Shown here piece after piece: positions 8,489 to 63,683 of a stretch of DNA of 64,000 nucleotides (position 1 is its first letter; each line of letters starts with the position of its first letter). The translations under genes and the position numbers were made by a program. The notes below the pieces were generated by a model that saw only the letters and a program-made list of their open reading frames with translations, had not been told where the DNA came from and did not search any database. The stretch is from Rhabdochlamydiaceae bacterium (GTDB taxonomy: Bacteria; Chlamydiota; Chlamydiia; Chlamydiales; Rhabdochlamydiaceae). The stretch spans positions 384,001 through 448,000 of the forward strand of contig JAJREF010000001.1 in assembly GCA_047459655.1 (NCBI GenBank), given 5' to 3'.

Positions 8489-8650
8489 GGAGCCTCTGGA
8501 TAAGTGCTTTGTCGTAGATTGCTGATCAATTTTTCGAAGACGACGATTTTGGAAAGCGCAGCTAACATGGAGAATGTTAGCAAGTTCGAAAAATCTAGTA
8601 TTCGCAAAAATAGGCGGCAAGATTCGGCGAATGAATTGTCGAGAGGTTCC
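8489..8650 (+). mobile_element. MITE family A copy 1 (flanks CTAA/TTAA)
   Basis: GGAGCCTCTGGATAAGT...AATTGTCGAGAGGTTCC; matches the ten other copies. Confidence 0.92.
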
Positions 8651-8695
8651 TTAAGGGTTTATCGGTTTTATTTATTATTTTGAAGGAAGTAATAT

Positions 8696-9673
8696 ATGTT
8701 AGTTGCTGTCACAGGAGCCTCGGGCCATATTGGAAATAACATCTGCCGCCTTCTTTTACAATTAGGACATAAAGTAAGAGCGCTTGTACATATCCACTCT
8801 AATTCACTAGAGCGCCTAGATGTAGAAAAAGTGCGCGGCGATATTTTAGATCCGGCTTCCTTGAAAAAATTCTGTGCCGATGCGGATGTTGTCATCCATG
8901 CAGCAGGTAAAATCTCTATCAGCGGAGACCCCGATGGTAGCGTGTACAATATCAATGTGAATGGAACAAAAAACATTGTGGAAGCCTGCTTGGCTGCTGG
9001 AACTGGGCGCCTTATTTACATCAGTTCTATCCACGCTCTCCAACAATTTCCTGAAGCAGAGCTCGATGAGACAAGACCTCTTGTCGGTGAAGAAGGTTTT
9101 TTACATGATTTCTCTAAATCGGAAGCTGAAAAAGAAATCACAAAAGGATTGGTACAAGGCCTTGATACCATTATTATTAACCCTACTGCTATCATCGGTC
9201 CCCATGATTTTCAACCTTCCCTAATGGGGAAAGGATTGATTGCTCTATACAACCGTAAAGTCCCTGCCATCGTAGCTGGCGGATTTGATTTTGTTGATGT
9301 CAGAGATGTCGCTAAAACCGTGATCACCGCCATTGAAAAAGGAAGAGCAGGCGATAGATACCTCTTATCAGGGATGTGGAAAACCGTCAAAGAACTTGCG
9401 CAGCTCGTCCAAGATATCACAGGCAAAACAGCCCCTAAATTCACATCTCCTAACTGGCTTGCTAGAATGGGCGTGCCCCTTGCCAAAGCCTACAGCTTTT
9501 TCACTAATACTCCCATGCTGTATACTAAAGAGACGCTCGATGTTTTACTCCGTTGCAACCGCAATATCAGTTGCTCTAAAGCTAAAAGAGAGCTCTACTT
9601 CTATCCTAGACCCCTCGTTGAAACCCTCAAAGACACCTTTGATTGGTACAAACAGACCGGCATGATTAAATAG
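8696..9673 (+). CDS. NAD-dependent epimerase/dehydratase (extended SDR; HpnA/dihydroflavonol reductase/3-beta-HSD-like)
   Basis: VTGASGHIG Rossmann motif, VIHAAG, NVNGTKN, YISS; catalytic YxxxK position reads DFSKSEAE. Confidence 0.85.
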   Translation: MLVAVTGASGHIGNNICRLLLQLGHKVRALVHIHSNSLERLDVEKVRGDILDPASLKKFCADADVVIHAAGKISISGDPDGSVYNINVNGTKNIVEACLAAGTGRLIYISSIHALQQFPEAELDETRPLVGEEGFLHDFSKSEAEKEITKGLVQGLDTIIINPTAIIGPHDFQPSLMGKGLIALYNRKVPAIVAGGFDFVDVRDVAKTVITAIEKGRAGDRYLLSGMWKTVKELAQLVQDITGKTAPKFTSPNWLARMGVPLAKAYSFFTNTPMLYTKETLDVLLRCNRNISCSKAKRELYFYPRPLVETLKDTFDWYKQTGMIK

Positions 9674-9735
9674 ACCTTCCACAATTGCATATTAGACCTC
9701 TTGCGTAATTAAGGTTCTTTTGAGCCGTTGCATAA

Positions 9736-9897
9736 GGAGCCTCTGGATAAGTGCTTTATCGGAGATTGCTGATCAATTTTTTGAAGACGACGATTTTGGA
9801 AAACGCAGCTAACATGCAGAATGTTAGCGAGTTTGAAAAATCTAGTATTCGCAAAAATTGGCAGCAAGATTCGGCAAATGACTTGTCCAGAGGTTCC
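9736..9897 (+). mobile_element. MITE family A copy 2 (flanks ATAA/ATAA)
   Basis: GGAGCCTCTGGATAAGT...ACTTGTCCAGAGGTTCC. Confidence 0.93.
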
Positions 9898-10105
9898 ATA
9901 AGTAATCATGTTTGTAAAAACGCACATTTTGCAATCTACGGCCTCATATTAATATCATTGTTTTTACTTAATTTGATTTTTTAAATAAAATCAATATTAT
10001 CTATATTTTTCAAAAAAATGTATATTATTAATAATAAAAAATGTTAATTATATTAATATACAACAGATTTTTAGTTATATCGATAATTACGACAGGTAGA
10101 ATAAT

Positions 10106-60847: not shown

Positions 60848-61923
60848 TGAAAGTTATATTTAAACGTGTAGGAATTGTCATCTTCTGGCTCGCGCTCATC
60901 ATGGGCATCCTCTACTTACCCGAAGGAAAAATCATCCCTATAGAAGAAAAAAGCATCAACGTGTTTGCATGGGGAGATATTTTAGAGCCTTCTGTAATCG
61001 ATGAGTTTGAAAAAACAACCGGCATCAAAGTTCATCTCAACTACTTTGCCTCTAATGAAGAGCTCTTGGTAAAGCTGAAAGCAACAGGAGGAAAGGGGTA
61101 TGATCTCATCATACCTTCCGACTACTCCGTAAAGATCTTGAGGGAAGATAATCTACTCAAGCCTTTCGACAAGAGGAAGCTCTCATTTTACTCAAGCCTG
61201 AATCCCATGCTCCTTGACCACGCTTTCGATCCCGACAACCTCTATTCCATCCCTTTTGAATGGGAACTCTTTGTGCTCGGCATCAATACCAACTTCTTTG
61301 CCAACCGCCCCTACGATCCTAGCTGGAAAATGCTTTTCGACCCCAAAGTCGTTAATTACCCGATCACCATGATTAATGACCCTGTTGAGGCAATTCTCTT
61401 TGCTGCTTTTTACCTCTACGGACCTGTAGAGAGCCTCAATCCTGAACAATTTCAAGAAGTGGTAAAACTTTTGATCCAACAAAAAAAATGGGTCACAGCA
61501 TATGCCGATTTCCGCGCTGACTACTTCCTTGCAAGCAAAAATTGCCCGGTTGTACTCTCCTCCACTTCTTATATATTCCGTACAATGCGCCGGTTTGATT
61601 TTATCAATTTTGCTGTTCCAAAAGAGGGAACATTCGTAACCATAGAAAACCTCTGCATTCCCCAAGCCAGCAAAAAAGAGCATCTCACCTACAAACTCAT
61701 TAACTTCCTATATCAGCCAAAGTCGATGAAAACCCACTTTGAAACCTATGGCGTTTTTCCTGCAACACTTGATGTCCTTCCTGATTTGGATCTCAATGAA
61801 GAGACAAAAGCCCTTCTCAACACCTCTCCAGAAACCTTTAAAAAATTCTACTTTGCACGAGTGATCACCTCACAACAAGCATTGCGAGATGCCTGGATCC
61901 AAGTCAAATCCACCAACGAATAG
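60847..61923 (+). CDS. potD: polyamine ABC substrate-binding protein
   Basis: FEKTTGIKV, SNEEL, GYDLIIPSDY, PKEG. Confidence 0.9.
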   Translation: MKVIFKRVGIVIFWLALIMGILYLPEGKIIPIEEKSINVFAWGDILEPSVIDEFEKTTGIKVHLNYFASNEELLVKLKATGGKGYDLIIPSDYSVKILREDNLLKPFDKRKLSFYSSLNPMLLDHAFDPDNLYSIPFEWELFVLGINTNFFANRPYDPSWKMLFDPKVVNYPITMINDPVEAILFAAFYLYGPVESLNPEQFQEVVKLLIQQKKWVTAYADFRADYFLASKNCPVVLSSTSYIFRTMRRFDFINFAVPKEGTFVTIENLCIPQASKKEHLTYKLINFLYQPKSMKTHFETYGVFPATLDVLPDLDLNEETKALLNTSPETFKKFYFARVITSQQALRDAWIQVKSTNE

Positions 61924-61971
61924 TTTGCTAAAAAACCTCTTAAATGCATTATAGACATTTTTGGAGGTCCG

Positions 61972-63263
61972 ATGAAACTCATACGCCACTTGCTTGTTCC
62001 CATTGCTCTTATTGTTTTATGCCCCCCGGTAGTTATTTTCATGTGGTACACAAACGTCGAGCTAGATGGCTCTATTCTAAAACTTTGGAACCTTTTTCAA
62101 AACCAAGGAATACTTAACACCATTTGGAAAGTATGGGGCCCTATTTTTTTGGTTCAAAAACAGCATGGACCATGATTGCTATATTTGGATCTATCCAGCT
62201 GCTCTTTATGAAAATTCTTCCCGGCAAAAAAGTTTCAGGCCCCCTTACCCCAAAGGGTAATATTCCCATCTATAAAGCCAACGGAGTTCCTGCTTTTTTT
62301 ATCACCCTTTTTTGTTTCTATTTCTCCACGCAGTTTTTCCACCTTTTTCCTGCAACTATCATCTATGACAACTTCGGCCCTCTTTTAGGCGCTTTAAATA
62401 CCTTCAGCCTCCTATTCTGCTTATTTCTCTGTATCAAAGGACACGTTGCACCCTCTACTTCCGATTCAGGAGGAACCGGAAATCTTGTCTTTGATTATTA
62501 CTGGGGAACAGAACTCTATCCTCGCATTTTTGGTTGGGATGTCAAAATGTTTACCAATTGCAGATTTGGGATGATGGGTTGGAGCCTTGTGATTCTATCT
62601 TTTGCCGCCAAGCAATCCCAACTCCACGGTCTCACCACTTCAATGTTAGTCGCTGTAATTTTACAGCTCACCTACATCGCTAAATTCTTTATATGGGAAA
62701 CTGGCTACCTACGCTCCATGGATATTATGCATGATAGGGCTGGATACTATATTTGCTGGGGATGCCTTGTTTGGGTTACAGGTTTTTACACTTCACCCAC
62801 CCTTTATCTCGTGAATCACCCCATCCACCTTAGTACATTTTCTGTCGCTCTATTGCTAATTGTGGGCATAAGCTGTATTGCAATCAACTACCTTGCCGAT
62901 CTACAAAGACAACGTTTTAGAGCTACAGAAGGCAACTGCTTAATTTGGAGAAAAAAGCCTAAATACATTGAAGCCAGTTATACAACTAGCAAGGGAGATA
63001 AAAAAACAAACCTCCTTCTAACCTCAGGCTGGTGGAGCCTTGCAAGACACTTCCACTACATCCCTGAAGTGATAGCAGCCTTCTGCTGGAGTGCACCCGC
63101 ACTTTTCTATAACCTCATCCCCTACTACTACGTTATTTTCTTAACAGCCCTCCTGATCGATCGCTCTTTCAGGCAAGAAAAACAATGTGCCAGCAAGTAT
63201 GGCAAGCACTGGGATCAGTACTGCAAAAAAGTCCCCTACAAGCTCATCCCTTTTATTTATTAA
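61972..63263 (+). CDS. sterol reductase, ERG4/ERG24 family, most like 7-dehydrocholesterol (delta-7) reductase (frameshift near 62145)
   Basis: YYWGTELYPRI, FTNCRFGMMGW, MDIMHDRAGYYICWGCLVW, LLTSGWWSLARHFHY, KYGKHWDQYC..VPY; multiple TM helices. Confidence 0.9.
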
Positions 63264-63293
63264 TAAGCTGATCGGAGCATTTTTGATTGTTCA

Positions 63294-63683
63294 ATGGAAG
63301 AAAAAACTTACATCAAAATGTTAGCTGCTAAATCTCATCAGATCCTAGGAGAGTTTATGTTATCTTATCTCAGAGTCGACTTCCCTTCTAAAAACAAGAA
63401 AGTCAATAAAAAAACCTTGGCTGCCCATAAAGGAGCCTCTGGACAAGTGCTTTGTCGGAGATTGCTGATCAATTTTTCGAAGACGACGATTTTGGGAAAC
63501 GCAGCTAACATGCAGAATGTTAGCGAGTTTGAAAAATCTAGTATTCGCAAAATTGGTACCAAGATTTGGCAAATGACTTGTCCAGAGGTTCCTAAAGAAG
63601 CCTTAAAAGGAAAAGGATCTTCTTATGACACTATGGATGATTTCTGGACGGATATGAAGGTAAATCGTCGTCCTAAGCCTTAA
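63294..63683 (+). CDS. putative type II antitoxin interrupted by MITE copy 11
   Basis: Removing 63432-63596 gives ...VNKKTLAAHKEALKGKGSSYDTMDDFW, a DinJ/RelB-type C-terminus; directly upstream of a YafQ-like toxin. Confidence 0.7.
   Translation: MEEKTYIKMLAAKSHQILGEFMLSYLRVDFPSKNKKVNKKTLAAHKGASGQVLCRRLLINFSKTTILGNAANMQNVSEFEKSSIRKIGTKIWQMTCPEVPKEALKGKGSSYDTMDDFWTDMKVNRRPKP
63432..63592 (+). mobile_element. MITE family A copy 11 (flanks TAAA/TAAA)
   Basis: GGAGCCTCTGGACAAGT...ACTTGTCCAGAGGTTCC. Confidence 0.94.

Follow-up and report, generated by a model that had tools for sequence, protein, structure and literature searches.

The window, a 64,000-nucleotide stretch of the source assembly (genome G000; 1.61 Mb, 82% complete), contains 11 copies of a short repeat, all on the + strand and 159–164 bp long. 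Copy 1 (8489–8650, flanks CTAA/TTAA) sits within another repeat whose empty paralogues have a single TTAA, and copy 2 (9736–9897) lies between ATAA/ATAA flanks. Three more copies cluster at 36331–36489 (copy 3, 159 bp, TTAA/TTAA), 36575–36734 (copy 4, 160 bp, ATAA/ATAA) and 37193–37354 (copy 5, TTAA/TTAA). Copies 6 (40180–40341) and 7 (40346–40509; 164 bp, flanks TTAA/TCAA) are 91.5% identical and form a head-to-tail pair with one TTAA common to both. The reference copy 8 (47377–47538) is similarly joined head-to-tail to copy 9 (47543–47703; 161 bp, 96.3% identity). Copy 10 (50990–51151; flanks TTAT/TCAT) is the most diverged (89% identity to the reference) and overlaps the predicted start of an open reading frame (ORF) at 51005–52255, and copy 11 (63432–63592; 161 bp) has TAAA/TAAA flanks. 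The starts, lengths and flank pairs agree exactly with those of an earlier sequence-only reading of this DNA, and the two flanks are identical 4-bp words at 8 of the 11 copies. The 17-bp terminal inverted repeats, which lie at 47377–47393 (+) and 47522–47538 (−) in copy 8, are exact at 8/11 left and 6/11 right ends and have 2–3 mismatches at the others. None of the 46 ORFs scanned (106 listed) matched an NCBIfam transposase family, in line with the earlier statement that the window has no transposase. The window is also a hotspot, with 11 copies in 64 kb versus 2.4 per 64 kb elsewhere in the genome.

Genome-wide, we identified 95 distinct pieces of the element, 68 of them near-full, rather than the hundreds of copies extrapolated from the window. 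The family of window copies alone accounts for 0.8% of G000. Both 17-bp ends are intact in 52 of the 68 near-full copies, and 33 of these 52 have exact 4-bp direct flanks versus 18.7 expected (10,000 permutations, p about 1e-4); duplications of 2, 3 or 5–9 bp showed no excess over permutation. Furthermore, 13 of the 55 isolated copies tested had candidate paralogous empty sites, and at 8 of these loci the best site lacked exactly 4 bp. Thus, insertion duplicates 4 bp, mostly TTAA, as the flanks had originally suggested. All five tandem junctions joining near-full copies are head-to-tail. The element has the hallmarks of a MITE (miniature inverted-repeat transposable element), being shorter than 500 bp, non-coding and multicopy, with terminal inverted repeats and a duplication evident at paralogous empty sites. 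It is absent from both same-genus genomes, and the contigs of sequencing run X1 (near-identical to the window) had no empty sites in positions 48000–64000. Rfam searches of the copies recovered no family at gathering score, only sub-threshold matches to miRNA precursors that reflect a generic hairpin shape. The element had no blastn match in plasmid and phage collections and only two weak matches in a promoter scan. Our literature search did not find it described, and published MITE lists may already hold its sequences unnamed.

Elements of the IS5 subgroup have GG...CC ends and a 4-bp TA-centred duplication. G000 carries an IS5-family element (contig C3, positions 6644–7825) of 1,182 bp with TTAA/TTTA flanks and a single ORF, whose predicted transposase scores 277 bits against NF033581 (IS5; cut-off 140). 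The right end of this IS is identical to both ends of the repeat, matching 18/18 bases at the left terminus of copy 8 and 17/17 at the right. A deleted second copy of the IS is flanked by TTAA/TTAA, and the duplication length (4 bp) is the same for IS and element. Blastn comparison of the element’s interior with the C3 IS revealed matches at the ends only, ruling out a type I MITE derived by internal deletion of the IS. Hence, the element resembles the IS5 family (subgroup IS5; NF033581; Pfam DUF772 and DDE_Tnp_1) in its GG...CC ends, 4-bp TA-centred duplication and 17-bp terminus, but differs in having no transposase, an unrelated interior, two ends that equal one IS end and a hairpin over its whole length. 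The other DDE_Tnp_1 elements of G000 have ends unrelated to those of the repeat.

The identity of the ends and the matching duplication suggest that the element is likely mobilized in trans by an IS5-family transposase. This MITE reading and its IS5-family driver, both proposed by the sequence-only reading, now have the backing of paralogous empty sites lacking 4 bp and of an IS with the predicted end. The gene of that IS is frameshifted in both G000 copies by a 7-bp gap near codon 41 relative to its homologue in genome G003; a contig of short reads for that deleted IS aligns gap-free to the G000 copy. The G003 homologue (84% identical) is intact, encodes 318 amino acids and has TTAA/TTAA flanks. 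The 82% complete G000 assembly yielded no intact cognate transposase, and genome G006 carries the element yet has no match to the IS transposase. An exact-pattern scan of 185,579 genomes returned 72 loci, three of them true homologues, and none of the 72 had a match to the IS transposase within 1.4 kb. In the proposed mechanism, the IS5 DDE transposase would excise and reinsert the element. The transposition burst has probably ended in G000, because the only full-length transposase gene found there is frameshifted.

The reference copy folds as one rod (−91 kcal/mol as RNA, z −14; −54 kcal/mol as DNA, z −13). Three helices with covarying pairs make up its hairpin core (47433–47483, +), and between them lie two conserved G/A-rich loops that stay unpaired. 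In 68/68 copies the reference strand gives a stronger fold than its complement, as DNA and RNA alike; the mean difference is modest for DNA (−35.6 vs −29.3 kcal/mol) and large for RNA (−70.9 vs −50.6 kcal/mol), with many G-U pairs. Covariation is apparent at 27 of 45 pairs among 25 sequences from 7 genomes. It extends to 16 of 17 core pairs across 31 genomes, a figure that leans upward because the model used to collect this alignment rewards pairing, and arm-to-arm copying alone can also create covariation. While the helices covary, the unpaired G/A bases are kept in 24–28 of the 31 genomes at most loop positions, and element length is fixed at 157–165 nt. The compensatory changes and conserved loops go beyond what the sequence-only reading saw; it missed the full-length hairpin, the interior common to other ends and the replichore polarity. 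A stop-free frame occurs in no more than 10 of the 47 copies that are 162 bp long, and most have stops in all frames, unlike the in-frame RPEs of Rickettsia. Six overlapping ORFs had no NCBIfam match at E ≤ 1, and frames and models together set the element apart from an RPE-like in-frame insertion.

Of 150 genomes from the host phylum, 32 carry the approximately 160-nt interior under differing ends, 15 of them outside the training alignment and 17 within it; in three outside groups of 150 genomes each, the core model found it in none. Its hosts are related, likely chlamydial bacteria, although searches of G000 itself for Chlam_OMP6 and Hc1 gave no match. A sequence-only HMM of the interior, trained on GGA-ended copies, scored 33 and 26 bits on TACC-ended elements of genomes G196 and G184, whereas 155 palindromic shuffles reached at most 4.1 bits. 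Scores were weak in G171 (15.8 bits), G095 (15.2 bits) and G170 (13.8 bits), and below 9 bits in five genomes. These weak scores and the overlap of training and test genomes would fit a convergence of AT-rich palindromes, aided by model bias, among unrelated ordinary MITEs. However, this explanation has very little chance of being correct given the 15 positive genomes outside training, the low ceiling of the shuffles, the empty outside groups, and a core model that matches one strand only and gives no match to class II hairpin families in G000.

The homologous interiors of G171, G184, G196, G120 and other genomes are bounded by IS630-type ends and a 3-bp TWA duplication. Three-bp repeats flank 16/21 TACC-ended elements and 9/10 elements of G170; 4-bp repeats never do. 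These interiors share the TACC...GGTA ends and the duplication of IS630-family elements from the same bacterial order, unlike the window copies with their IS5 ends and 4-bp duplication. For example, an IS630 element of G141 (NF033545, 143 bits) has ends that match those of the G171 element with 0–1 mismatches in 18. Only three end types yielded a cognate IS whose ends match: IS5 in G000, IS630 and IS427-like (3 mismatches). The queries used recovered no transposase with matching ends for G170, G088, G070 or G247. Blastn of two other-ended homologues against the plasmid and phage collections gave no match for one and a single 49-bp match for the other. The interiors under IS5, IS630-type, IS427-like and other ends are homologous, if weakly so for some end types.

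How one interior could acquire such different ends is suggested by copies in which one arm has been overwritten by the other. At position 592572 of contig C1, the right arm has left-arm bases at 10/10 diagnostic positions, and at C1:79051 left-arm bases occupy the outer 3 diagnostic positions. In several G006 copies, both termini are instead similar to the left end of the IS, as predicted by copying from one end. Transposon ends were thus likely exchanged via arm-to-arm copying. An IS end that arrives within or next to one arm would be copied to the other arm by template switching inside the palindrome, and the interior would thereby pass to a new transposase.

The orientation of the element in G000 follows the replichore at 54 of 63 sites. 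The same holds, whatever the ends, for 83/108 elements pooled from seven other genomes (G088, 22/29; G070, 17/21; G141, 13/14; G184, 9/10; G171, 12/16; G095, 4/5), although G200 has no polarity (6/13). Pooled, family f43, with IS630-type and other ends, keeps this polarity with respect to the core in 34 of 40 cases. Two controls lack the bias, the autonomous IS630 of G141 (15/35) and the near-symmetric hairpin families of G000 (15/34), and families F2 and F5 show only a trend (14/22). Ordinary miniature transposons do not account for this same-strand bias. Truncated pieces are less biased than near-full copies (17/27 vs 59/68, p = 0.02), and the bias is as strong in young copies as in old ones (23/26 each). 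Progressive purging with age was therefore not seen; the equality argues against slow purging and is equally compatible with a polarity fixed when the element inserts.

GC skew, rather than the neighboring genes, is what orientation follows. The bias is present in all four gene contexts, and G000 ORFs are not biased to either strand (759 leading, 818 lagging). Among pneumococcal repeats, by comparison, 61–63% are on the leading strand, in parallel with the bias of genes, according to the available text of PMC3049150. Several copies start 1 bp past a stop codon. It is quite unlikely that the fold is maintained as RNA, either as an RNase III target or as an mRNA stabilizer, roles that have been reported for Correia and ERIC. 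The G-U pairs, the large strand difference in RNA folding, the copies next to stop codons and the co-orientation of the downstream gene (41/63, p = 0.02) would favor it, but the upstream gene is co-oriented at only 30/63 sites (p = 0.8), co-directional gene pairs are matched in 20/32 cases (p = 0.2), and the gene contexts and unbiased ORFs also speak against it.

The polarity could also come from the IS5 transposase itself, through binding of the sliding clamp by an N-terminal QLSF motif. The G003 transposase has this motif at residue 3, the G000 frame has it too, and both G000 IS copies have the same orientation, on a G-rich stretch. In addition, a peptide of IS5a binds the clamp and IS5a is orientation-biased in 11% of chromosomes, according to the available text of PMC3971601. 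Yet carriers of IS630-type and other ends keep the core polarity (as in f43), which largely refutes the clamp as sole cause, and the element’s two ends are nearly identical, with little asymmetry for a transposase to read. We consider this origin highly unlikely.

We instead propose, as the cause of the polarity, loss of the fold from the lagging-strand template. The element lies mostly on the C-rich strand. With this strand taken as the leading-strand template, the stronger fold would stay off the lagging template, which is transiently single-stranded and on which such hairpins would be cut or deleted shortly after they insert. Taken together, the element is probably a 162-bp non-coding fold-back element, moved in trans by an IS5 transposase, with ends swapped arm-to-arm and a polarity arising from lagging-template fold loss. 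A possible, more tentative alternative is that polarity is set at integration, the core being a functional loading module, more than a mere survivor, whose folded or bent form is bound by a replication-fork factor of the host, and this factor would orient the transposition complex whatever the transposase. The equal bias of young and old copies, its presence in both IS5- and IS630-ended elements but not in autonomous IS630, the conserved loops, the fixed length and the five head-to-tail junctions are consistent with this alternative. However, the binding factor is only putative, G200 is unbiased, and a second hairpin family of approximately 160 bp with exchangeable ends spreads in G000 without polarity. 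Extending this idea, and unlikely as a whole, the core would be a transposase-independent rod of single-stranded DNA with conserved G/A loops, recognized by a putative chlamydial fork factor that orients and amplifies the element, and capturing any resident IS ends by fold-back copying.

IS200/IS605 elements are not known to have terminal inverted repeats or target duplications. The inverted ends, 4-bp duplication and DDE partners of the element set it apart from IS200/IS605 and REP/RAYT (HUH) systems. It nonetheless recalls IS200/IS605 peel-and-paste transposition in its single-strand hairpins and replication-linked orientation, as outlined in the available text of PMC3971601. Likewise, the IS982-derived MITE of Cardinium is a lineage-specific burst in an intracellular symbiont genome (PMC9769881, in the part available). 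Prokaryotic MITEs of type II resemble their IS at the ends only, and the available sections of two papers on them describe no chlamydial family, cross-IS interior or strong replichore polarity (PMC10969869, PMC2229807). The element resembles such MITEs (Correia/NEMIS, RUP, ERIC, YPAL and Rickettsia RPE) in its 100–200 bp size, AT richness, intergenic location, long stem-loop, target duplication and tandem or nested insertions.

MITE interiors are usually regarded as decayed filler, and MITEs are classified according to the ends they carry. In the present case, a single interior whose length is fixed and whose fold is conserved appears to have moved, throughout a bacterial order, among transposase families that are unrelated, and its orientation is governed by the interior and the strand of replication and not by the transposase. 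The elements make up a sizeable, unannotated part of these genomes and may mark IS families since lost. As a substrate of only 162 bp, the element makes it testable where the interiors of type II MITEs come from and why many of them are long imperfect hairpins. If true, the transposase-independent core would amount to a selfish element whose identity lies in the fold rather than in the transposase.

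All 11 copies of the 162-bp hairpin element in the window lie on the + strand, measure 159–164 bp and carry the flanks that the sequence-only reading had listed for them. The window is C1:384001–448000 of the source assembly (1.61 Mb in five contigs, C1–C5; 82% complete). A blastn search of the whole assembly recovered 95 distinct pieces, of which 68 are near-full and 52 retain both ends intact, and a covariance-model search returned essentially the same set. Copies diverge from the majority sequence by a median of 5%. The earlier projection of hundreds of copies overshot, because copies are packed about five times more densely in the window than in the remaining genome. 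The proposed 4-bp target-site duplication is borne out: 4-bp flanks are identical in 33 of the 52 intact copies (permutation mean 18.7, p about 1e-4), other repeat lengths from 2 to 9 show no excess in these copies, and the right flank repeats the left in 9 of the 21 copies with a left flank other than TTAA. Furthermore, the element is frequently found inside other repeats, whose other copies provide empty paralogues. Paralogous candidates existed for 13 of 55 isolated copies examined; the best one lacked exactly 4 bp at eight loci, including TTAT sites and window copy 8489, and the remaining five aligned poorly (72–76%), the best match differing by a net −1 to +2.

A triple head-to-tail array at C1:162939–163432 arose by local duplication, since its identity (97.5–99.4%) exceeds the 91% background. 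The window pair 40180/40346, with identity at background level, looks from its sequence like a second insertion. Collapsed forms of 45 and ~80 bp that kept both ends but lost the core (loci L161 and L169 in genome G170; L112 in G411) are likely hairpin deletions.

A double-length UvrA and an ssb with PRK06293 as its best model, both encoded in the window, point to an environmental chlamydia as the likely host, as does Hc1, which is present in 16 of 20 relatives but gave no match in the source genome itself; all three are chlamydial traits. Genes such as uvrA, rpoB and rpoC are split by one-base indels (window 2804–8377, 17826–25758 and others). These are likely assembly errors, because in window 48000–64000 the contigs of sequencing run X1, otherwise near-identical, show indels of this kind relative to the assembly. 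Copies adjoin an ERG4/ERG24 sterol reductase family gene (62124–63263; 254 bits) and an HpnA/SdmB-like dehydrogenase gene (8696–9673), and a leucine-rich-repeat ORF in two pieces (35357–36306, − strand), which resembles LRR effector models at scores below the cut-off, lies directly beside the three-copy cluster.

A scan for unpaired ends found a candidate driver of the hairpins, a 1,182-bp element (C3:6644–7825), and its 586-bp deleted copy (C3:54550–55135), both overlapping DUF772 and DDE_Tnp_1 matches. The ORF of the longer element matches NF033581 (IS5 family) with 277 bits. The right end of this element equals the left end of the hairpin over 18 bases and the hairpin's right end over 17; the two interiors share no sequence. 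Near codon 41, both copies share a frameshift that corresponds to a gap of 7 bp relative to the intact gene of genome G003. This frameshift is real, because the assembly is confirmed at this point by a short-read contig covering the deleted copy; by contrast, many one-base indels in housekeeping genes are corrected by run X1. The G003 transposase (318 aa, 84% identical to the source version) keeps the three catalytic motifs and is 47–49% identical to plasmid IS5 transposases. An IS5-family enzyme of this type likely mobilized the hairpins.

The ends of other DDE_Tnp_1 elements in the source genome are unrelated to those of the hairpin. A ~1.49-kb element in seven copies (C1:225540–227023, 300810–302297, 450643–452129 and 489970–491440; C3:3071–4539; C5:196955–198443 and 330231–331696) and a 1.81-kb element in two (C1:101539–103347, C5:90649–92459) have ends unlike any hairpin family. 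Elsewhere, mostly in Gammaproteobacteria, 92–277-bp elements at 11 of 72 loci share the IS5-type ends and are flanked by exact 4-bp repeats but have unrelated interiors (L035, L037, L048, L064, L066, L072, L087, L089, L090, L097 and L098).

A blastn search recovered homologues from one of 40 relatives and, with only two candidates per genome scored, from five of 399 order genomes; two public records with homologues are titled Verrucomicrobia. Of 150 order genomes, 34 contained 157–165-nt rods that matched a model built from GGA-ended copies, and many of these rods had clearly different ends. In an alignment of 31 elements, each from a different genome, the interior was conserved and the outer 20–25 bases wholly variable. 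A sequence-only HMM trained on interiors of GGA-ended copies gave 33 and 26 bits for held-out elements with TACC ends and 34 and 27 bits for two with GAG ends, against at most 4.1 bits for 155 palindromic shuffles and 0.5 for the separate class II hairpins; scores were weak for other lineages, five falling below 9 bits. An interior-only model matched 32 of the 150 host-phylum genomes searched, 17 of them used in training and 15 not; none of the 27 genomes in family f35 matched, and three outside groups of 150 genomes each gave no match. The model also weakly matched F2 (E 0.003–0.06), a family with other ends in the source genome. F2 (C5:54250–54416, 14 copies) and F5 (C1:478161–478328, 11 copies) are asymmetric hairpins with GAGACC ends, and in F5 a single TTAT site has received the focal element several times.

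Autonomous elements match other end types: the ends of an IS630 in G141 match those of the G171 element, and those of a two-ORF IS5 (NF033580) in G095 match with 3 mismatches in 16. Duplication length differs accordingly: 3-bp repeats flank 16 of the 21 TACC-ended elements and 9 of the 10 from G170, and none has a 4-bp one. We conclude that the interior has been exchanged between transposase families. The ends were probably swapped by arm-to-arm copying within the hairpin. In copy C1:592572, left-arm bases overwrite the right arm at 10 of 10 diagnostic positions; both focal ends in the source genome are identical to the IS right end, and several G006 copies instead resemble its left end at both ends.

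The whole element is predicted to fold as one rod (z of about −14 for RNA and −13 for DNA), and the reference strand gives the more stable fold in 68 of 68 copies. Two-sided changes occur at 27 of 45 predicted pairs (25 sequences, 7 genomes), with a covariation score reached by none of 500 shuffles and slid controls only 32–55% paired, although related sequences may beat such shuffles without structure and arm-to-arm copying also creates covariation. The core of the 31-genome alignment covaries at 16 of 17 pairs, and the G and A bases of its unpaired loops stay conserved in 24–28 genomes at most loop positions.

With tandem arrays collapsed to single sites, the reference strand lies on the C-rich strand at 54 of 63 sites (p=6e-9), in all four gene contexts, and ORFs have no strand bias. 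The same polarity appears in G088 (22/29, four places of unclear skew left out), G070 (17/21), G141 (13/14), G184 (9/10), G171 (12/16) and G095 (4/5) but not in G200 (6/13); the last six genomes gave 84 matches, five dropped, with skew sampled in 20-kb windows. The biased genomes span five families, and kin among them are not independent.

The autonomous IS630 of G141 has no orientation bias (15 of 35 placed matches), nor have the class II hairpins of the source genome (near-symmetric ones 15/34). The polarity therefore goes with the core and not the transposase, which weakens an origin in a transposase clamp motif of the kind described in PMC3971601. Class II comprises near-perfect hairpins of ~160–170 bp with at least eight end types (e.g., C1:512471–512640, C1:596160–596326, C5:123440–123610, C5:258789–258951, C2:107563–107734 and C3:173196–173371); their central 90 bases are related, with pairwise z reaching 24 relative to palindromic shuffles. 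Nesting of hairpin elements runs in both directions; at C2:90241–90534, a class II hairpin with its own 4-bp repeat splits a focal copy at its centre.

The G-rich strand is the leading strand, so the stronger fold sits on the leading-strand template. Hairpins can be deleted on the lagging strand and cleaved by SbcCD. We favor a model in which copies with the stronger fold on the lagging template would be lost rapidly, which fits the lower bias of truncated pieces (17/27 versus 59/68, strand calls of the former being less sure). Young and old copies are equally biased, as rapid loss and an orientation set at integration would predict just as well; we regard the latter as rather unlikely.

The literature covered, which included few subscription papers and not ISfinder, describes neither chlamydial MITEs nor an interior shared across IS families. 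The text of PMC10969869 lacks the string "chlamyd" and that of PMC9723776 lacks "MITE"; comparison drew on passages of PMC3971601, PMC9769881, PMC5896051, PMC3049150, PMC2229807 and bioRxiv 10.1101/2024.01.18.576219. The sequence-only call of a new IS5-mobilized MITE was correct, and by itself such an element is ordinary. What distinguishes it is that its interior has passed from one transposase family to another and that its polarity relative to the replication strand goes with this interior.
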